Origin: Micavibrio sp.
GTDB lineage: Bacteria > Pseudomonadota > Alphaproteobacteria > Micavibrionales > UBA2020
Assembly (NCBI GenBank): GCA_040377425.1
Contig: JBEIOU010000013.1
Location: forward strand, 7,919-71,918
Length of the DNA: 64,000 nt
Reading direction: 5' to 3'
This document shows positions 1-11,718 of this stretch, piece by piece; the first letter of the stretch is position 1, and each line of letters opens with the position of its first letter. Under the pieces are notes generated by a model. That model did no database searches. It was given only the letters and a program-made list of their open reading frames with translations, and had not been told where the DNA came from. Both the position numbers and the translations under genes were made by a program.

Positions 1-1611
1 TTTACCGCGCAGGCCGCATATTACAAACATGCACAAAGCGAATTTGAAGCCCGCGCGGCTGCCGGCGGCTTGAATGCCGCAGAAGAAGGCGCGCGTCTGG
101 CGGGGCTTTATGAATCTGTGGCGGCATGGTTTGATGCGCAGGCGCAGGACGTATCGGGCGGCACGCCGATTGATGCGCTACATTTTGATATCAAATTCTT
201 TGTCGAAACCATCCTGTTGAAACCCGCGCAGCTGAACCGTGAACGCGCCGCAGCTTGCCGCGCCCTGATGGCGGCAGATGCTGAACAGCTGGCACATCAT
301 TATGCCATTCTGGCGGGTCTGTTTAACGTCGAGTTTGCAAGCTTCGAGCGTAAGCGGTACATCAACCTGTCGCACGACGCAAACAAGGCGATGAACCTGA
401 ACAGCTATATCCAGCTGATCGGCCATGCCTGGAAAGAAGTCGAAACGCCGCAAGGTCTGGTGCTGGAGCAATGCGCAGCCGAAGAGGCAACGTTCAGCGT
501 GCCGAATACCGATTATATCAACACCATCGATGCCGACAGCCTGATGACGCATGATTACGTGTCGCGTCTGGTTTATTTGATGGAACAGCCCGACCACGCC
601 AAAATTGCCGTGGCGCAGGCGCCGTGCTCGTCCATTCCTGGCTCTCCCGTTGAAATCGAACGCATCGCGGGTGCCGTGATTGACGTGCAGTATCATACCC
701 ACCAGGGCTATACCTATTGGTATGCCAGTTTCTGGGTGGGCGCGAATGCCATGCTACGTATGACCGCGCTGAATGCGATCAAGGAAATCGCCAATGTCGA
801 TGGCAAAACCTTCGCCATTTATATTCAAGACCGCACGGTGATCGAAGATACGGAATCGACCATCGACCTCGTACAAAAAGGGTGGCTGCTGTATAACTAT
901 CCTGCACGCATGACCTTTAGCGCAACGCCGGCGGATTTCGGCTCTCTGCTTATCCAGCGTCGCCGCTGGGCGAATGGCGGCCTGATTATTCTGCCAAAAC
1001 TGATCCGCTATGCCATGCAGGCGCCCAAGAACCTGCGCCTGCTCAAAGAACTTTTTATGCGCTTTAACTATCTGGCGATGACGACGCTCAGCGTGGCGGT
1101 GATGTATCTGTTTGCGTTCTACAGCTTTAGCCCGCGTCTCAGCACGCCACTGCTGATTTATGCGAATATTCCGCTGCTGCTGCTGTATTCGCGTGACCTC
1201 AAGGTTTGCGGCTACCGCTATACCGACGTGTTCCGCGTTATCTCGCTCAACCTGATGCTGCTGCCGATTATTACGGCGGGTGTTCTGAAACAGATGCAGC
1301 AAATTTTGACAGGCCGCAAAGTTCCTTTTGCGCGCACGCCCAAGGTGAAAAACCGTACCGGCGCGCCGGCGATGTATTACCTGATGGAACTGGGCATGAT
1401 CGGCTATTGCGCATATATGGTGATTGCGAACGCGCTGGATGACGAATGGTCGCCTGTGGTTTATTCGCTTTTGAACCTGACGATGCTGCTGTATGCCATG
1501 TTCCGGTATATTGGTGTGCGTGCCATGTGCCAGGATTTGTGGGCGGCATGGATAAACACATGGGCAGGTTTCACGCAAAAGCGTGCGGCGCGTCAAAAAC
1601 CGCAAGCCTGA
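1..1611 (+). CDS. Family-2 processive glycosyltransferase (cellulose-synthase-like), 5' partial
   Basis: The frame is open from base 1, and the track start at 70 is only a TTG. It carries the DAD (TIDADSLM), TED (EDTEST) and QRRRW motifs, followed by several hydrophobic C-terminal helices. Confidence 0.8.
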   Translation, partial: FTAQAAYYKHAQSEFEARAAAGGLNAAEEGARLAGLYESVAAWFDAQAQDVSGGTPIDALHFDIKFFVETILLKPAQLNRERAAACRALMAADAEQLAHHYAILAGLFNVEFASFERKRYINLSHDANKAMNLNSYIQLIGHAWKEVETPQGLVLEQCAAEEATFSVPNTDYINTIDADSLMTHDYVSRLVYLMEQPDHAKIAVAQAPCSSIPGSPVEIERIAGAVIDVQYHTHQGYTYWYASFWVGANAMLRMTALNAIKEIANVDGKTFAIYIQDRTVIEDTESTIDLVQKGWLLYNYPARMTFSATPADFGSLLIQRRRWANGGLIILPKLIRYAMQAPKNLRLLKELFMRFNYLAMTTLSVAVMYLFAFYSFSPRLSTPLLIYANIPLLLLYSRDLKVCGYRYTDVFRVISLNLMLLPIITAGVLKQMQQILTGRKVPFARTPKVKNRTGAPAMYYLMELGMIGYCAYMVIANALDDEWSPVVYSLLNLTMLLYAMFRYIGVRAMCQDLWAAWINTWAGFTQKRAARQKPQA

Positions 1612-1630
1612 TAGATGAAAACCAAGCAAA

Positions 1631-1658
1631 AGCCCGCTGGCATTGCTGTCAGCGGGCT
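1631..1658. terminator. Bidirectional rho-independent terminator between convergent genes
   Basis: Stem AGCCCGCTG / CAGCGGGCT with a 10-nt loop, an A-run upstream and a T-rich tract downstream. Confidence 0.7.
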
Positions 1659-1682
1659 TTTGCTTTTGCGGTTGTGCGGTTT

Positions 1683-2857
<1,175 letters not shown>

Positions 2858-3173
2858 TCAATGCCTGCGCCGTGTATAAATCGAGTGGCCGAGGCCCGCT
2901 ATTAGGCCATTGATTCGTCTTTCTAAAAAAGCTGAAAACTTTCAGATCACTACGGCCGAGTGTGAAACCACCAGACGCAAAGCATGCGCTATCGCCATGG
3001 ACGGGGATATGTGGTCAATCCGCTTTATGGTTTTTGCGCCGCTGCGTAAGCGTAAAATTTTTGAAAAATTTTAAGACGTCCCGAGGGCTTGTTTTTTAAA
3101 CCCTTTTTGCCCTGGTTTTTCCCTAAGCGAGATGAAAGCGACTCTCATTTAGATCCCCCTGCGGGACAAGATG

Positions 3174-3202
3174 TTGACAATGAGTAAACGCAATCATACT
3201 AT
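3174..3202 (+). promoter_or_regulatory. Candidate sigma70-type promoter for nrdHIEF
   Basis: TTGACA (3174-3179), a 17-nt spacer, then TACTAT (3197-3202). Confidence 0.5.
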
Positions 3203-3211
3203 ATCTAGTAG
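3196..3211. promoter_or_regulatory. NrdR-box-like palindrome overlapping the -10 element
   Basis: ATACTATATCTAGTAG has a near-palindromic core ACTATATCTAGT and matches about 12 of 16 positions of the NrdR consensus as I recall it. Only one box was found. Confidence 0.3.
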
Positions 3212-3532
3212 CTGGAGGGGGCAGGGGTTAACGACGCGCCGCTATCAACCAATATCGGTTTTGCCGCATATTTTGGCCTTGATAAACGCGTTTTTTCACG
3301 CAAAAAACCATAGATTTGCCGAAAAACCATATTTTTCGGAATGCCTGATTTTTGCCTGAAGCCCGGTTTGCTTCTCTCTGGTCAACGATAAAAACACTCA
3401 CGCACCCATCATCGGGGCACATCGAAGACGAAGAGAAAATCAGCCGACAGCGCCGGATGTCCTATCCGGTTCGCGGGACGCCTTTCACTGACATCCTTGA
3501 TCGTGTGCCGATCTCACAAGCGAGGATTTCAC

Positions 3533-3754
3533 ATGTCAGTTACCGTTTACAGCAAACCGTCCTGCGTACAATGCACCGCAACCTACCGCGCGCTCGACCG
3601 CAAAGGCGTTTCTTATAACATTATCGACCTGTCCCAAGATCCTTCCATGCTGGGCAAGATCAGCGAACTGGGCTACCGCGAGGTGCCCGTTGTATTTGCT
3701 GGCGAACAGCACTGGTCCGGCTTCCGTCCGGATATGATCAGCGCGCTCGGTTAA
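3533..3754 (+). CDS. nrdH: Glutaredoxin-like protein NrdH
   Basis: [22 protein letters not shown] with a CVQC redox motif. A GAGGA RBS lies 7 nt upstream of the ATG. It is the first gene of the nrdHIEF order. Confidence 0.9.
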
Positions 3755-3762
3755 TTTTCGCC

Positions 3763-4196
3763 ATGGCGCGGGTCGTTTACTATTCCAGTCATTCACAAAA
3801 CACACACCGTTTTGCCGAACGTCTGGGCATTCCCGCCATGCGCATTCCGGTTTCCCCGCAGGAGGCTATGCCCCGTGCAGATGAACCGTTTGTTCTGATC
3901 ACGCCCACCTATGCCGATGATGTCGGCCGCGGCGCGGTTCCCAAACAGGTCATCCGATTTCTCAACGACCCTGCACACAGGGAACTGTTGAGGGGGGTCA
4001 TCGCCTCCGGCAACCGGAACTTCGGCCAGTTTTATGGCCATGCGGGTAATGTGATTGCTCAAAAATGTGATGTGCCGCTTTTGTACAAGTTCGAGCTGTC
4101 GGGCACCGAAGAAGATATCAACAACGTTAAGCAAGGAATGATGAAGTTATGGGAGTCGTCGAATTGGGATACGCAGGCGCTGCTAAAAAAGAGCCT

Positions 4197-4200
<4 letters not shown>
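3763..4200 (+). CDS. nrdI: Class Ib ribonucleotide reductase flavodoxin-like protein NrdI
   Basis: The N-terminus [18 protein letters not shown] is typical of NrdI. It sits between nrdH and nrdE. Confidence 0.88.
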
Positions 4201-7348
<3,148 letters not shown>

Positions 7349-7376
7349 TCGCCCGTAAATAGGCGGCATAAAAAAA

Positions 7377-7400
7377 GAGAGCGGGCATTTACCCGCTCTC
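7377..7400. terminator. Bidirectional rho-independent terminator (nrdF / csp convergent)
   Basis: Stem GAGAGCGGG / CCCGCTCTC flanked by an A-run and a T-run. Confidence 0.8.
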
Positions 7401-7437
7401 TTTTTTTATGCGTTTTTGCGCGGCGCTTTGAAAACCT

Positions 7438-7644
7438 TTACGGCAAGAGCGCGATATTTACTGCCGACGTTTTACCGTTTTCTGTATGGAGGTCATAGGA
7501 CAGGCGCTGGCCAACGTCGACTTGTTCGATACCCGCGGCGCTCAGGGCCGAGATATGCACGTAAACGTTATCTCCCCCGTCTTGCGGGCGGATAAAGCCG
7601 TAGCCGCGATCTTGTTTGAACGAAATAATACTTCCTGTCGGCAT
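7438..7644 (-). CDS. Cold-shock domain protein (CspA family)
   Basis: The RNP1-like motif DRGYGFI is followed by VYVHISAL. The product is 68 aa. Confidence 0.9.
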   Translation of the reverse strand: MPTGSIISFKQDRGYGFIRPQDGGDNVYVHISALSAAGIEQVDVGQRLSYDLHTENGKTSAVNIALLP

Positions 7645-7645
7645 T

Positions 7646-7969
7646 TTAATCTTCCTTTACCAGCTTCTGGCATTTGCCCATTTTGATCGATGATAACTTA
7701 CGGCGGATCATATCGCCCGCATTTATTTTGGAGGGGGTATCTTCGGCGCTCTCGATCAACGATAGCCGCTTGACCGCGATGACCTCCAGCTCGACTGTCT
7801 CGCCGAGCGAGAGGACTTTTGCGGTCACCGCCTGCTCCCCGATTTGATCCGGCTTCCCGCGCGGTTTGTTCGGTTTTGCCCAAATCGGCTCGCGCCAGCG
7901 GATCGTATCCGAAACGGCGGGGGCGGGGCAGGGCGGCCATTTTTCTTGTGTCATTTTTAAATTATCCAA
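7646..7969 (-). CDS. Hypothetical protein, translationally coupled to the downstream csp
   Basis: ORF of 107 aa (an alternative start is at M6). Its TAA stop is 1 nt from the csp ATG. I recognise no family. Confidence 0.5.
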   Translation of the reverse strand: MDNLKMTQEKWPPCPAPAVSDTIRWREPIWAKPNKPRGKPDQIGEQAVTAKVLSLGETVELEVIAVKRLSLIESAEDTPSKINAGDMIRRKLSSIKMGKCQKLVKED

Positions 7970-8090
7970 AAGATAAATTTCTAGTAAGGGTGCGGCGGCT
8001 CAATTCTCGGGGGTGGCGCAGCCCGAAGATGGCAGAATATTCTACTTTTTATCATCGGAAATACAGAGAACTTTTTCATTTTTACGCGGG

Positions 8091-9284
8091 TCATGACAGG
8101 AATTTGGCCACCCGCCGGGAAATCGCGGGAGAGGCTGCCGCGACCACGGGCGTCACCAGCAATGACATAGACGTTACAATCATGAAAAACTGGGCGTCTG
8201 CTGCCGGAATGATGCCATAGCCGAGGGCGATTGTAACGATCACAAAAACAAACTCTCCGCTTTGCCCAAGAAGGATCGAGGTTTCGGCGGCCGTTTTTTT
8301 CTCTACCTTGAACAAGAGGCAAAGCGCAAACAGAATGCCCGCCTTGAGAAGGCCGATACCCGCGACCGATGCAAATATCCACAGCGCATTATCCATCAGC
8401 ATTTTTCCATCTATCATCATGCCGACCGACAGAAAAAACACACCCATCAGAAGGTTTTTAATGGGGGCGATGACGCTTTGAATATCGTTTTTATGTTCTG
8501 TTTCCGCAAGCAGCAGCCCCGCAAGGAAGGCGCCCAGCGCCGACGACAGCCCCGCCTTCTCCGTCAAGGATGCCGCCCCGATCATGACAAAGAGCGCGAA
8601 GGACGTGAGCCATTCCTTGCGCTTGCTGGGGTTGATGTGGCGTAGCAGGGGTCTCAGCAGGCGCATGCCGATCAAATAAATTCCGGCAACCGTCACGGTG
8701 GCCAGTGCCAGCGCACTGCCGGTTACAAAGAAAAGGCTTTGATCCGTTTTTGTTGTATATGCCGTCAGCAGTACCAGAATGGGGACAACTGCCAGATCTT
8801 GCATCAGAAGGATTGAAAACGACAGTTTGCCGACAGGTTTGTTGAGGGTGTCTTTTTCATCGAGCAGTTGCATGACAACGGCCGTCGATGAAAGCGCAAA
8901 GCAGGCCCCCAGCAAAATAGACATTTCAAGCGCGTTTCCAAAATAATAGGCGATGACGAATACCGCGGTACCCGTCAGAACGATCTGGCAACTGCCCAGC
9001 CCCAGGATGTGTCTTCTCATTTGCCACAACTCGTTCAGCGAGAGTTTCAGGCCAATCATAAACATCAAAAAAATGATACCCAGCTCCGAGAATTCGGTAA
9101 TCATCTCGCTGTCTGCAATAGACGGGATTGCCTGCGTATCAAGCCACGACGTCAGACCATGCGGGCCCATCAATATGCCGCATAACAAAAAACCCAGCAC
9201 AGGAGAAATCTTCATCCTGTGAAGCAGAGGGATCGTCAGGCCCGCAATGCCCAGAAGAATAAGAATTTGTGTATAGTTGTGCAT
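8091..9284 (-). CDS. Cation:proton antiporter (CPA2/Kef-type membrane domain, no KTN domain)
   Basis: Polytopic membrane protein with an N-terminus (LLGIAGLTIPLLHRMKISPVLGFLLCGILMGPHGL) typical of Kef/CPA2 transporters. Confidence 0.8.
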   Translation of the reverse strand: MHNYTQILILLGIAGLTIPLLHRMKISPVLGFLLCGILMGPHGLTSWLDTQAIPSIADSEMITEFSELGIIFLMFMIGLKLSLNELWQMRRHILGLGSCQIVLTGTAVFVIAYYFGNALEMSILLGACFALSSTAVVMQLLDEKDTLNKPVGKLSFSILLMQDLAVVPILVLLTAYTTKTDQSLFFVTGSALALATVTVAGIYLIGMRLLRPLLRHINPSKRKEWLTSFALFVMIGAASLTEKAGLSSALGAFLAGLLLAETEHKNDIQSVIAPIKNLLMGVFFLSVGMMIDGKMLMDNALWIFASVAGIGLLKAGILFALCLLFKVEKKTAAETSILLGQSGEFVFVIVTIALGYGIIPAADAQFFMIVTSMSLLVTPVVAAASPAISRRVAKFLS

Positions 9285-9363
9285 AGGTTCTGACCCTCAG
9301 GGGCGGCTCTCATGTCTGTTGAGAACGATTGCTATCTCGGCGTGTTTTTTAGAGACTACACGG

Positions 9364-9456
9364 TTAGAGACCCATAATAGCAAAGAGTGTTGATAGAACG
9401 GCTGCGTATACCGCAACAGGGTCTATATTGCCTGATGCTGTAAAATCAAAAGTCAT
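9364..9456 (-). pseudogene. Truncated remnant (30 codons) paralogous to the N-terminus of the 10381..10875 gene
   Basis: MTFDFTASGNIDPVAVYAAVLSTLFAIMGL* compares with MTLDFSISGDIDPVALYAAILSTVIAIVGLYQWW. A TAA stands where the full copy has TAC. Confidence 0.7.
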
Positions 9457-9481
9457 TTATCTGAAATTATATTTTTGTGTA

Positions 9482-9961
9482 TTATTCAATAATCTTACAT
9501 ATGCCAGTCCATTGAGACGGCATGCTTGTCGTTTCACCAAAAGACAATTGCGTGTGTCGTGAGGTTGCATAGAAATAATTTCCATCGGCATCTCGGTTGG
9601 AAAAAATAGTTGCCGTTATTAAAGCGCCTACACCAGTAAAGTCTATAAAGTTTAGGCCGACTTCCCCTGCTCGGACTGCAACATCATCTGTGCCAGCATT
9701 GCCTATGATAAGCGCCGTGCCATGTTTAATATCTATTTTTGTATAGGTGGCAACGCTGTCTTCTGGATTTTTTGAGAAAGCGCCCCTTTCAAAAGAAGTC
9801 TTTTTGCCATTAAATGTTGATGTGCCGCCTTCTTTAATCGTGCATCGAATTGTTTTGGCGCCCAACAGCGGATCAAGATTGCTTTGTGCTGAGACAGAAA
9901 AAGGTGTGAAAAGTACAATTAACGTCACGAGAAAAATTTTCTTCATTTTAACCTTCTCCAA
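9482..9961 (-). CDS. Hypothetical secreted protein (Sec signal peptide)
   Basis: MKKIFLVTLIVLFTPFSVSA|QS is signal-like. The gene is AT-rich. One Cys lies near the mature N-terminus and one lies 5 residues from the C-terminus. Confidence 0.6.
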   Translation of the reverse strand: MEKVKMKKIFLVTLIVLFTPFSVSAQSNLDPLLGAKTIRCTIKEGGTSTFNGKKTSFERGAFSKNPEDSVATYTKIDIKHGTALIIGNAGTDDVAVRAGEVGLNFIDFTGVGALITATIFSNRDADGNYFYATSRHTQLSFGETTSMPSQWTGICKIIE

Positions 9962-10031
9962 GGGAACAATAATCTTTTCTGATCAGTAACATAGTATCTT
10001 ACAATCCACCTGCCTAAGCAAGTTAATGGAG

Positions 10032-10240
10032 CGAAATTGATTATGGCAGGAACCGCATTTGTCAGCTAAATGAATCGCTTAAAAAATGGTACTTCCTGCT
10101 CTCCAGTACCTGAAAGTTTCTCAGAGTTTTCTATTTGAGAGATAAGAGCGGGCGTGAAGTACGTAAAAAATCCACGCCGACAGTTCACGAATGATTGCAA
10201 ATAAAAGCTTATCACATTGTTGTTCGCGTGACGCTTGTTT
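10032..10240. repeat. Copy 1 of a roughly 200-bp imperfect direct repeat (non-coding)
   Basis: It aligns by eye with 11391..11595 and shares blocks GATTATGGCAG, AAATGAATCGCTTAAAAA, GGCGTGAAGTAC, CAGTTCAC and GCAAATAAA. It contains a GGTACT..AGTACC hairpin (10088-10110). Confidence 0.7.
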
Positions 10241-10380
10241 GCACCAGAGATACGGTTCGTGAAGAATAAATGGCGGAGCAAACAACCCCACGGCGAACCG
10301 TGCATTACCTTACGGCGGGGCCTGTCTGGAATTATCTGGGGGTTTCTGGGAAGAAACAAGCGGTATTTTCCAATGGCGGC

Positions 10381-10875
10381 TCAGGAGTTAGATGGAATTT
10401 TTACCCTGCATAAAACTCCATTTTTTCCACCCATCGAGTGAGCGACAACCGCGTACAGCAGACCTTTGCTAGCCATTCCCTCAAAGTCGTCGGAGGAACT
10501 GTCGACGCCCCCGTCTTGTGGTACCTGTGCTTGCCATTGCTCACCTGGCGGAAGTACATGAGGCGTTTTTACCTTATGGGCAAAGTAAGTCTGAGCTGCC
10601 TTAGATCGAAATATTCTTTTCCAAGGGGATTCCCAATAATGGAAATATAGTCCGGTTATCGTTGTTGCTGATACGCCCGTGTTTGTCACTGTTACGGAGA
10701 TATATCGATGATCGTCCACACTCGGTATCATCACCATATTTCCATTACATTTCACGGAAATCCGATTGCGTGCCCACCACTGGTAAAGACCCACGATAGC
10801 AATGACTGTCGAAAGAATAGCTGCATATAACGCAACTGGGTCTATATCGCCAGATATTGAAAAATCTAATGTCAT
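10381..10875 (-). CDS. Hypothetical membrane-anchored protein (N-terminal TM helix, beta-rich C-terminal domain)
   Basis: 164-aa ORF in the AT-rich islet. The TM segment is IDPVALYAAILSTVIAIVGLYQWW. I recognise no family. Confidence 0.6.
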   Translation of the reverse strand: MTLDFSISGDIDPVALYAAILSTVIAIVGLYQWWARNRISVKCNGNMVMIPSVDDHRYISVTVTNTGVSATTITGLYFHYWESPWKRIFRSKAAQTYFAHKVKTPHVLPPGEQWQAQVPQDGGVDSSSDDFEGMASKGLLYAVVAHSMGGKNGVLCRVKIPSNS

Positions 10876-10891
10876 TTAAGACTTTCTCTTT

Positions 10892-11272
10892 TTATCTTTC
10901 TATGAGAGCGCAGGTTCCATCAAAGAATCCTGGAGGCACTTTTAATGCCACCGCATTGCTTAATTTAGAGAAGTGCCCAGCCATCTTACCACCATCATAA
11001 ATTTGCAATTGATCGCCTACTTTTTTAATAGGGGTGTAGTAACCGAGATACTGACTTGGAATTTCAAATTTTAGGTCACCGTCGGCGTCACTCCACAATC
11101 CTACCCAAGGCCTATATTCACTCAGCCTTAAATAAATTTTAGACTGTTGGGACGTATTATCCGCAGTAATTTTACCATCACACTCAAAACTGGTCTCCAC
11201 AGCAGAAAATTTAATAACGACTACAAATGCGATTATTAGTAAAATAAAAACAGTACCTAAGATTTTTTTCAT
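10892..11272 (-). CDS. Hypothetical signal-anchored/secreted small protein
   Basis: MKKILGTVFILLIIAFVVVIKF is a hydrophobic N-terminus. Cys residues lie near both ends of the mature part. A GGAG RBS is present. Confidence 0.6.
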   Translation of the reverse strand: MKKILGTVFILLIIAFVVVIKFSAVETSFECDGKITADNTSQQSKIYLRLSEYRPWVGLWSDADGDLKFEIPSQYLGYYTPIKKVGDQLQIYDGGKMAGHFSKLSNAVALKVPPGFFDGTCALIER

Positions 11273-11390
11273 TCGTACTCTCCATTAATAAATTCTGCAT
11301 TCATACTAAACAAAGAATTAATATCACAAAACGCCAAATCCACGCTTGTGGAGGGTTACATGATATCTTGGTTAGGCAGTTGAAGTTACG

Positions 11391-11595
11391 AAATAGATTA
11401 TGGCAGAAGTCGAATTCACCAGCAAAATGAATCGCTTAAAAACTGGTACTTCAGAGTCAAAAGTACCAAAAATTACTCAGAGATTTCGTGATTGAGAGAT
11501 AGAAATAGGCGTGAAGTACACGAAGAAAATCGTATCAGCAGTTCACAAACAATCGCAAATAAACGCTTGTGACGCTGTCGTCCATGCGTGGTCGC
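11391..11595. repeat. Copy 2 of the roughly 200-bp imperfect direct repeat, abutting tRNA-Ser
   Basis: See copy 1. The hairpin is TGGTACTT..AAGTACCA (11446-11470). Confidence 0.7.
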
Positions 11596-11628
11596 ATTAC
11601 AGTTGAGATATGGTTGCAACCAGATAAA

Positions 11629-11718
11629 TGGCGGAGAGGATGAGATTCGAACTCACGAAACCTGTTACAGTTTACTCGCTTTCCAGGCGAGCGCCTTCAA
11701 CCACTCGGCCACCTCTCC
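11629..11718 (-). tRNA. tRNA-Ser (anticodon GGA)
   Basis: The reverse complement folds as a cloverleaf with acceptor GGAGAGG/CCTCTCC, anticodon loop CUGGAAA, a long variable arm, T-loop TTCGAAT and an encoded CCA. Confidence 0.9.

Follow-up and report, generated by a model that had tools for sequence, protein, structure and literature searches.

An AT-rich islet at a tRNA-Ser(GGA) gene, probably the remains of two successive insertions of small integrase-less cassettes

Introduction

What do the small genes of an AT-rich islet encode, and how does the islet, which carries no integrase, come to lie directly at the 3' end of a tRNA gene? Transfer RNA genes are familiar landing sites of large islands that bear their own integrase. 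The islet studied here, at positions 9285-11628 of the window (the whole stretch of DNA analysed, 64,000 nucleotides), had been predicted from the sequence to consist of two tandem cassettes of accessory genes. The explanation that we consider best, with a probability of about 0.62, is that it represents what is left of two successive site-specific insertions of integrase-less cassettes of ~1.4 kb into the 3' end of tRNA-Ser(GGA).

Results

A strain-specific islet adjoins an intact tRNA-Ser(GGA) gene

The existence of the islet and the coordinates of all its features were confirmed. It lies between a Na+/H+ (Kef-type) exchanger gene (8091..9284, minus strand; Pfam Na_H_Exchanger, 3e-55), which flanks the cassettes and is not part of them, and the gene for tRNA-Ser(GGA) (11629..11718, minus strand; ARAGORN; Rfam tRNA, 60.5 bits), its anchor and presumed target. 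Consistently with the drop in composition that had been noted between antiporter and tRNA, GC across 9300-11550 was 0.34-0.47, which is 10-20 points below the genome mean of 0.558, while the tRNA side reached 0.52-0.65. The islet begins 0-5 nt past the tRNA, which is intact, a position corresponding to insertion at the 3' end with preservation of the tRNA gene.

Comparison across related genomes revealed no conserved syntenic core locus. The islet was missing in all eight congeners (8/8), whose similarity to the window breaks off 3-7 nt past tRNA-Ser(GGA); at six congener loci the tRNA gene was 96-99% identical and similarity ended at window positions 11622-11626. Gene content after this same tRNA differed in each congener, which counts in favour of the preferred reading, and the 164-aa gene of the islet was present in none of 40 relatives (the eight congeners and 32 further genomes). 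The flanking exchanger gene is not conserved in the genus either, the best congener match being 44% identical and found in one genome, and the others being ~30% identical paralogues. The accessory nature proposed in the original prediction is borne out by the variable content after the tRNA, by the distribution of the 164-aa gene and by the restriction of the repeated element described below; a match to a housekeeping family, named beforehand as refuting that proposal, was tested for and did not occur.

The islet was also correctly described as lacking an integrase, since searches with P4-type and IntI integrases gave no match within it or elsewhere on its contig. Matches to P4-type integrases in the genome were confined to contigs C23 and C7, and the sole intact one, 44% identical to the integrase of the related element L005 (see below), is no obvious helper because it sits beside a tRNA-Met-like fragment and not at tRNA-Ser, which counts against the preferred reading.

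Two tandem units share a non-coding element that starts within the tRNA

The islet is made of two tandem units with the same order of parts, namely a non-coding element that we call R, a gene for a secreted protein and a gene of the 164-aa family, so that the predicted pair of cassettes of one architecture was found as described. Shared segments of the two units are spaced by 1357-1419 nt: positions 10032-10278 and 11389-11636 are 72% identical over 247 nt (E 4.6e-26), and positions 9359-9459 and 10778-10878, the start of the 164-family gene, are 79% identical.

R measures ~250 nt and opens with the final 8 nt of the tRNA followed by TTTAT; further on it contains a terminator hairpin and an extended -10 promoter-like site that is conserved. 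Repeat comparison placed its tRNA-proximal copy, R2, at 11380..11636 and its distal copy, R1, at 10021..10278 (both on the minus strand), and a covariance model scored them at 146 and 137 bits, respectively. The likeness of R1 and R2 sets in exactly at the 13-mer CTCCGCCATTTAT, composed of the 8 tRNA nucleotides and the 5 that follow, and this coincidence counts for the insertion of cassettes. Exact copies of this att-like core are found at the tRNA end (11624..11636, minus strand) and at the junction between the two units (10266..10278, minus strand), bounding the proximal unit; these are the only two occurrences of the 13-mer in the 2.5-Mb genome. CTCCGCCATTTAT is invariant in R2, in R1 and in the R of a metagenome contig (L092), and it matches the attL/attR core CC[CT]CCGCCATTTA[AT]TC of the integrase-bearing element L005. 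A core copy was also sought at the outer edge of the older unit, beside the exchanger gene, and not found, which counts against the preferred reading. The segment 8120-8137, a weak 15/17 match that may be due to chance, was discarded as a candidate distal copy.

Within R2, a terminator scan located a hairpin with a T-run at 11443..11469 (minus strand), whose stem is kept in R1 (hairpin at 10088-10110, minus strand) and in L092 with one compensatory pair. Beyond it lies TGCCATAAT, a putative extended -10 promoter at 11397..11405 in R2 and 10040-10048 in R1 (both minus strand), identical in the two copies and in a genome from another family of the same order (G160), and replaced by TGCAATAAT in L092. 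The site failed a strict sigma-70 two-hexamer scan; its conservation suggests that it may act as a promoter.

R is rare, which again counts against the preferred reading: the covariance model detected it in two of 320 genomes of the order and in none of 400 other genomes sampled from the class, BLAST found none in the other 41 genomes of the family, and two exact-pattern scans of metagenome contigs gave no match.

The cargo consists of three protein families

The first gene of the proximal unit (10892..11272, minus strand) is an open reading frame for a 126-aa signal-anchored protein, predicted to be all-beta and periplasmic (AF2 pLDDT 93.7), with an N-in/C-out topology by charge bias. Its 58 homologues are spread over many phyla with no conserved neighbour gene among 37 loci, and the family occurs as a true integron cassette, between attC sites beside IntI, at two loci (L043 and L045, the latter in Luteimonas wenzhouensis). 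At a further locus (L096), the 126 gene is preceded by a homologous leader of only 66 nt and is not accompanied by R. The first gene of the distal unit (9482..9961, minus strand) encodes a 159-aa protein with a signal peptide and a predicted beta-barrel (AF2 pLDDT 81.7). This family is much smaller (12 homologues), and a tRNA-Ser gene or its 3' end was close by in all six other independent loci (6/6).

The two secreted proteins had been judged not obviously homologous, and profile-profile comparison agrees, showing no relation between the 126 and 159 families (hhalign probability 4%). Both contain a pair of cysteines, C31/C121 (invariant in 56 sequences) and C40/C155 (invariant in 12 sequences), and AF2 models put each Cys of these pairs in the first or last beta strand. 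The end-to-end disulfide that had been suggested for both proteins is consistent with this arrangement, with C31-C121 and C40-C155 as the predicted bonds.

The second gene of the proximal unit (10381..10875, minus strand), separated from the 126 gene by 16 nt, is an open reading frame for a 164-aa protein with an N-terminal transmembrane helix and a beta-rich domain predicted to be cytoplasmic. Lysine and arginine are richer after the helix than before it in 51/54 members of the family, a charge bias that supports an N-out anchor with a cytoplasmic beta domain; for the 126- and 159-aa proteins, exposure to the periplasm is the predicted topology. The family counts 309 cluster representatives at E<=1e-3, and elsewhere its members are mostly solitary genes between housekeeping genes. 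In the distal unit the corresponding gene is reduced to a 30-codon remnant (9364..9456, minus strand) that aligns with the N-terminus of the 164-aa protein at 68-70% identity and has its stop codon at the position of Tyr31 in the intact copy. The decay of the distal cassette, which had been proposed, is thus visible in this truncation and in the existence of an intact version of the unit, with genes for proteins of 157 and 170 aa, at tRNA-Ser(GGA) of another metagenome contig (L091).

No domain had been recognised in the three proteins, and searches of Pfam, NCBIfam, PADLOC and PHROGs gave nothing above threshold. The 164-aa family matched no Pfam, PHROG or PDB family, profiles of all three families found nothing at E<0.1 among PDB sequences, and Pfam scans of all members of cargo families A1 and A3, as well as a PHROGs scan of A3, were empty. 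The PADLOC anti-phage defence models matched neither the three window proteins nor the gene pair of L091, and searches of IMG/VR viral contigs detected neither the 126 nor the 159 family. Pfam PF03929 (PepSY_TM) was rejected for the 164-aa protein at 20.8 bits against a threshold of 28.8; one of 54 family members matches it. For the secreted proteins, Foldseek returned only weak beta-barrel or LolA-like matches: for the 126-aa model the best E was 3e-3 (LolA, TM 0.31), with nothing at E<=1e-3 in PDB or BFVD, and for the 159-aa model 4e-3 (the C-terminal barrel of NHBA, TM 0.40), with nothing at E<=1e-3 in PDB.

Related modules recur at tRNA-Ser genes elsewhere

Both R and the gene pair were encountered at tRNA-Ser genes of other genomes. 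In L091, tRNA-Ser(GGA) is followed by the 157-aa gene and the intact 170-aa gene of the 164 family, the counterpart of our remnant (44% identity, E 4.7e-42), and the pair lies between the copies of a 94-nt direct repeat (97% identity) whose beginning falls within the tRNA end. In L092, R stands directly past the 3' end of tRNA-Ser and is followed by a 159-family gene and by a parallel remnant of a 164-family gene. In G160, R comes after tRNA-Ser(GGA) and before an unrelated lipoprotein gene. Modules at two further loci (L006 and L088) lie between repeated copies of the tRNA 3' end or of its terminator, and several related loci are arrays of small same-strand ORFs. Moreover, a metagenome contig (L005, from SRR31629364) holds a complete 3.8-kb element at tRNA-Ser(GGA), with a P4-type integrase, AlpA and a 157-aa cargo, bounded by a 17-nt attL and attR whose core, CCGCCATTTA, is that of the window.

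Discussion

A proposed history of the islet

In the history that we favour, each cassette would have entered at the 3' end of tRNA-Ser(GGA), with the start of R, which is the 3' strand of the acceptor stem plus TTTAT, acting as the att core. Since R begins with this strand, the tRNA would stay intact after insertion; R would then give its transcript a replacement terminator and, directly after it, provide the cargo with an extended -10 promoter. The first cargo gene would supply a small beta protein, stapled by a disulfide and facing the periplasm, from either the 126-aa or the 159-aa family, and the second a 164-family protein anchored by a single N-terminal membrane helix, with its beta-rich domain facing the cytoplasm. 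The younger cassette (126 and 164), adjacent to the tRNA, may have displaced the older one (159 and 164) outward, the latter losing its second gene afterwards except for 30 codons. The enzyme behind the insertions was probably a P4-type tyrosine integrase acting in trans and similar to that of L005, and, because no L005-like integrase is left in the genome, the islet would now be stranded.

As to what the cargo does, an envelope-protective accessory role is our best guess, more apt to be wrong than right, since no hit in the databases searched points to a function. The beta protein in the periplasm would bind incoming agents directed at the envelope, or block them, such an agent being a bacteriocin, a contact-delivered toxin or a phage component, and the membrane protein would be its optional partner. 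A bolder reading of the locus, which we find doubtful, would make R-type units a gene-capture system of their own, the tRNA-anchored counterpart of the integron. A P4-family integrase in trans would serially insert promoter-bearing mini-cassettes of 0.65-1.5 kb at the acceptor end common to tRNA-Ser isoacceptors, R would be at once att site, tRNA terminator and cassette promoter, and the pool of small envelope-protein cargo would be shared with integrons.

Alternative explanations

The two units might instead have arisen in place, through local tandem duplication of one ancestral R-X-164 cassette by unequal homologous recombination, with one copy later exchanging its first gene for another and without any site-specific integration. 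R (72-77% identity) and the 164-family gene start are indeed common to both units in the same order and at the spacing given above, the limited identity of R1 and R2 is compatible with duplication followed by divergence, and the R-less 126 gene of L096 with its short leader fits the replacement of a first gene inside such a frame. However, we consider this origin improbable: the repeat begins exactly at the tRNA acceptor end, which is not required of an arbitrary duplication, R occurs with other cargo at tRNA-Ser genes of unrelated genomes, similar modules elsewhere are flanked by tRNA-end repeats and one has a cognate integrase, and a divergence of ~25% between the copies, together with wholly unrelated first genes, fits two imports better. 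Equally improbable, although compatible with cassette insertion, is the idea that R is conserved mainly as a structured RNA, a ~190-nt 3' trailer of the tRNA-Ser transcript that would be processed into a small regulatory RNA. R does extend between the 3' end of the tRNA and a same-strand terminator, and a second hairpin (GTGAAC...GTACTTCAC) is paired in three copies with differing Watson-Crick pairs at two positions; this covariation is of little weight because only three or four copies exist, the best-conserved part of the fourth (G160) is the terminator-promoter junction and not the trailer, and no Rfam family matched. An Rfam sX4 match (22.7 bits against a threshold of 70) was rejected.

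An integron origin, with the units as cassettes or as relics of an integron array acquired by attC x attI recombination, is very improbable. The genome has no IntI (with the L043 IntI as query, the best tblastn matches were 28-31% identical and XerC/D-like), neither a repeat search nor reading of the sequence turned up an imperfect palindrome of attC type in or beyond the spaces that separate the genes, a mere 16 nt divide the 126 gene from the 164 gene, and the true attC sites of L045 look quite different; the repeated element precedes the genes, opens with a tRNA end and contains its own promoter-like site, unlike promoterless cassettes. Against this stand the integron-cassette status of the 126-aa family in L045 and L043 and the same-strand ORF arrays at several related loci. 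Finally, the view that the three genes are ordinary core envelope genes placed next to the tRNA by chance has only their intact reading frames in its favour and is already refuted by their lack in the eight congeners and 32 further relatives and by the different genes that the congeners carry after the tRNA. Their low GC also speaks against it, as do the homologues, 40-50% identical, that unrelated phyla and integrons contain.

Comparison with known systems

The preferred reading, that of stranded and successively integrated mini-cassettes whose cargo matches no known family in the searched databases, places the islet near several described classes of element. Islands that target tRNA genes through tyrosine integrases include tandem arrays in which a newcomer displaces older elements outward (Islander database, PMC4383910; Prochlorococcus tycheposons, bioRxiv 10.1101/2020.12.28.424599). 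The islet resembles them in its position at a tRNA 3' end, in the regeneration of that end by element sequence, in the tRNA-end copy between its units, in the distal place and decay of its older unit, in its foreign composition and in its strain-specific content. It differs in having no integrase, excisionase or replication gene, in units of only ~1.4 kb, in a shared segment that is a 250-nt adaptor with terminator and promoter-like site, and in that no distal att copy was found.

Cis-mobilizable elements (CIMEs), described in streptococci, are att-flanked elements without recombination or transfer genes; they are thought to have arisen by deletion from integrative conjugative or mobilizable elements (ICEs or IMEs), which serve as helpers when CIMEs move by accretion (reviewed in PMC5704250). 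The proximal unit, and only this one, is comparable in lying between two att-like cores with no recombination or conjugation genes inside, and any movement of it would need an integrase from another element; no helper element, oriT or relaxase is present here. With L005 the islet shares the target tRNA (94% identical) and the att core, and the cargo of L005 is 69% identical to the 159-aa protein. In contrast, R and a 164-family gene are lacking in L005, whose genes include those for an integrase, AlpA, a 250-aa protein and a winged-helix protein. Its cargo gene sits at the far end, in the orientation opposite to that of the window, so that simple deletion from L005 does not account for the window, a point against the preferred reading.

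Integron gene cassettes are likewise small units of one or two genes in which variable cargo is joined to a common recombination element, whereas the islet has no attC, attI or IntI, its common element lies upstream of the genes with its own promoter-like site, and its recombinase would probably be a P4-type integrase. Three unnamed protein families are defined here, characterised by two invariant cysteines, one in the first strand and one in the last, or by an N-out anchor with a predicted cytoplasmic beta domain. Should the units be mobile, very small accessory genes would spread without the usual marks of mobile elements, and programs that find islands by their integrases would therefore miss them. 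In contrast to the large islands known at tRNA genes, the units are tiny and integrase-less and share an adaptor that we read as preserving the tRNA, ending its transcript and restarting transcription for the cargo; in other genomes this adaptor is found with other cargo, and one of the cargo families is also an integron cassette, which, again if the units are mobile, would imply exchange between two cassette systems.

A strain-specific islet of two tandem units at tRNA-Ser(GGA)

Read away from the tRNA-Ser(GGA) gene (11629-11718), the islet comprised, all on the minus strand like the tRNA, a non-coding repeat (R2, ~11380-11636), a 126-aa ORF (10892-11272), a 164-aa ORF 16 nt after it (10381-10875), a spacer of ~100 nt, a second repeat copy (R1, 10021-10278), a 159-aa ORF (9482-9961) and a 30-codon ORF (9364-9456), with the start of a Kef-type Na+/H+ exchanger gene (8091-9284, minus strand) 79 nt further on. 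R1 and R2 were 72-77% identical across ~250-300 nt. The 30-codon ORF and its ribosome-binding region showed 79% DNA identity to the start of the 164-aa gene, with the stop at the position of Tyr31 of the intact gene, and the GC content was 0.34-0.47 compared with 0.558 for the genome. The original prediction had described this gene order, the repeats, the remnant and the composition correctly in every point, with each feature where it was found here, and its overall interpretation was supported.

The SPFH gene and the tRNA were kept across the genus (81-84% DNA identity), and similarity to six congener loci ended at 11622-11626, 3-7 nt past the tRNA. The gene content beyond differed in each congener, in five of which the contig breaks at the tRNA or at most 3.5 kb from it; one carried a DsbD-like protein and an ECF sigma factor. 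The 164-aa gene was missing from 40 relatives, eight species of the genus among them, and none of the family's other 41 genomes had R. Thus, comparison of the tRNA-Ser locus across relatives bore out the predicted accessory nature of the islet. Against G006, the one congener with detectable synteny on the exchanger side, the differing segment spanned ~1,600-11,625, and the AT-rich islet was its tRNA-proximal part. The exchanger gene had no orthologue in seven of eight congeners (best match 44% identity, in one genome) and may be transcribed from inside the islet, since the only region upstream of it is the decayed cassette. As a separate observation, reading of translations identified a LuxR/LuxI-type quorum-sensing pair and a P450-like gene directly after tRNA-Ser(GGA) in another congener (G004, L079:5761-7316).

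Related modules at tRNA-Ser genes

Each of the seven independent 159-family loci, counting the window, had a tRNA-Ser gene or its 3' end close by, 140-320 nt upstream in six and ~3 kb away, within an integrase element, in L005. At L091, tRNA-Ser(GGA) was followed by a 157-aa homologue (57% identity to the 159-aa protein) and then by a 164-family protein of 170 aa that is intact (44% identity, E 4.7e-42). The module (1469 nt) lies between 94-nt direct repeats (97% identity) that open with the tRNA end and take in the tRNA terminator. The tRNA end recurs once more inside it, as a 19-nt copy, and the module corresponds to the distal unit of the window in intact form. The prediction of two tandem cassettes of the same architecture, the distal one decaying, is therefore upheld by this locus and by the repeat that begins both units. 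Two metagenome contigs (L092 and L093) begin in a tRNA-Ser 3' end, followed by the same 13-nt core, a clear R homologue, a 154-aa homologue (65% identity to the 159-aa protein) and another short 164-family remnant.

Loci L006 and L007 held a four-ORF module, including a 154-aa homologue, between 20-nt repeats of a tRNA-Ser(GCT) end. What the loci share as a core is the acceptor stem's 3' strand. Serine isoacceptors have that strand in common, which would account for the use of both GGA and GCT genes. L005 is a complete small element at tRNA-Ser(GGA), encoding a P4-type integrase, a 250-aa protein, AlpA, a winged-helix protein and a 157-aa cargo (69% identity to the window's 159-aa protein), bounded by 17-nt attL and attR with the core CC[CT]CCGCCATTTA[AT]TC. 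L088 and L089 had three tandem copies of the tRNA 3' end and terminator ahead of the cargo, and a single 153-aa cargo gene between two terminator-repeat copies. In L088 (5000-5960), these three copies lie 163 and 139 nt apart downstream of tRNA-Ser(GGA), several partial copies of the tRNA 5' end lie upstream, and the region looks like a site of repeated recombination.

The repeat as a candidate adaptor

The likeness of R1 and R2 begins exactly at CTCCGCCATTTAT, made up of the tRNA's final 8 nt and 5 nt more, a 13-mer that occurs nowhere else in the 2.5-Mb genome. About 160 nt past this core, a terminator scan located a hairpin and then a T-run on the tRNA strand, directly followed by a conserved TTGCTG-17 nt-TGCCATAAT, from which we infer a putative extended -10 promoter, the site having failed a strict two-hexamer scan. 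Given its start in the tRNA end, the hairpin with T-run and the promoter-like site, R would have three roles: keeping the tRNA end intact, terminating the tRNA transcript and giving the cargo a fresh transcription start. A covariance model of the terminator-promoter part gave one match (58 bits) in G160, of another family of the same order, directly past tRNA-Ser(GGA) and followed by an unrelated AT-rich lipoprotein gene of ~120 aa. At the far end of that cassette (L099:1030-1070) lies a partial copy of the tRNA-Ser 3' end (ATCTCCCTGTCCGG), inverted rather than direct.

A second hairpin lies between core and terminator; its stem stayed paired in three copies, two of the Watson-Crick pairs being made up of different bases, which, with R copies so few, is no more than a hint of RNA structure. 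In this hairpin, GTGAAC...GTACTTCAC (11500-11545 and 10140-10185), the inner stem varies between copies and is still paired; it could be a structural part of the tRNA trailer RNA or a site that a protein binds.

Three uncharacterised protein families

The 126-aa protein has a strongly hydrophobic N-terminal anchor preceded by positive charges, indicating a predicted N-in/C-out topology, and is all-beta past the anchor (AF2 pLDDT 93.7). The 159-aa protein has a classical signal peptide ending VSA|QS and a beta-barrel-like domain (pLDDT 81.7). The two families are unrelated in sequence, in agreement with the original prediction, which saw no obvious homology, and the single cysteine noted near each end of both proteins proved invariant (C31 and C121; C40 and C155), in the first and last strands of the models, which fits a putative end-to-end disulfide. 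Exhaustive HMMER searches gave 309 cluster representatives of the 164 family with the same ~160-aa design, in which an acidic N-terminus leads into a single membrane helix, then basic residues, then a beta-rich domain containing the motif V-x-N-x-G...TTIT. Since positive charges follow the helix in 51 of 54 members, this domain is probably cytoplasmic.

None of the three proteins matched a Pfam, NCBIfam, PHROG or PADLOC family, and the family profiles matched no PDB sequence. Foldseek returned only weak matches, to LolA for the 126-aa model (E 3e-3, TM 0.31) and to an NHBA/TbpB/avidin-type barrel for the 159-aa model (E 4e-3, TM 0.40). The families are uncharacterised, in line with the earlier failure to recognise any domain.

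The protein collection contained 58 homologues of the 126 family, and named genomes contributed 35 loci (30-71% identity), in Alpha-, Beta-, Gamma- and Deltaproteobacteria, Acidobacteriota, Bacillota, Patescibacteria, Verrucomicrobiota, Nitrospinota, Gemmatimonadota and Bacteroidota; the family had no conserved neighbour gene across 37 loci and was not found in IMG/VR viral contigs. In Luteimonas wenzhouensis (L045) two typical attC sites flank the gene, which comes second in the array behind IntI, after an aadA-like cassette; in L043 it comes third behind IntI. Elsewhere it lies 250-380 nt past tRNA-Ser (Stappia albiluteola L035; L039) or tRNA-Ala (L041). In its closest relative (L096, 82% identity) a core similar to a tRNA end precedes it, and the gene after it encodes a Trypsin_2 protease in place of a 164-family protein. 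It is a widely transferred, self-sufficient small gene with at least two kinds of vehicle.

Three loci with 126-family genes showed further features. The chromosomal integron of L045 (4911-9500) continues with at least four further cassettes, six near-identical attC sites parting its cassettes, the aadA-like one encoding a nucleotidyltransferase. In L096 (296-1753), the protease (355 aa, no signal peptide) begins 10 nt after the 126 homologue and weakly matches the PADLOC models RT-Protease and PDC-M35A. L008 (5047-7063) has, past tRNA-Ser(GCT), five small genes for secreted proteins or lipoproteins in a tight operon; one is a 126-family member, and a 254-aa ORF and another three small ORFs follow on the other strand.

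A tentative and rather doubtful reading is an accessory role in which the proteins would protect the envelope, for example by blocking a toxin or phage component on its way in. It would fit small periplasm-facing, disulfide-type beta proteins, a 126 family in which one gene suffices, carriage on integrons as well as tRNA islets, fast turnover, and an optional partner that is either the 164 family or a trypsin-like protease.

Origin of the islet

The simplest account would be two successive site-specific insertions at the tRNA end, the newer unit coming to lie nearer the tRNA and the older decaying afterwards. Three points count against it: an att copy was looked for at the distal end of the islet and not found, the cargo orientation differs from that in L005, and R is rare. 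A local duplication, after which the first gene would have been replaced, appears distinctly unlikely as the source of the two units. The islet is probably immobile now, since the genome has no integron integrase, and the only P4-type integrase that it encodes intact (44% identity to the L005 enzyme) is found next to a tRNA-Met-like fragment in a different island. That second AT-rich island (contig C23, 17000-24000, outside the window; GC 0.41-0.47) has the integrase beside a tRNA-Met-like 3' fragment and ORFs of 661 and 840 aa ahead of it.

Successive insertion, with the newer unit tRNA-proximal and the older decaying, is a known pattern of tRNA islands (PMC4383910; bioRxiv 10.1101/2020.12.28.424599). 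Unlike those islands, the units described here are very small, lack an integrase and have in common a putative multifunctional adaptor, R, that bears different cargo in different genomes.
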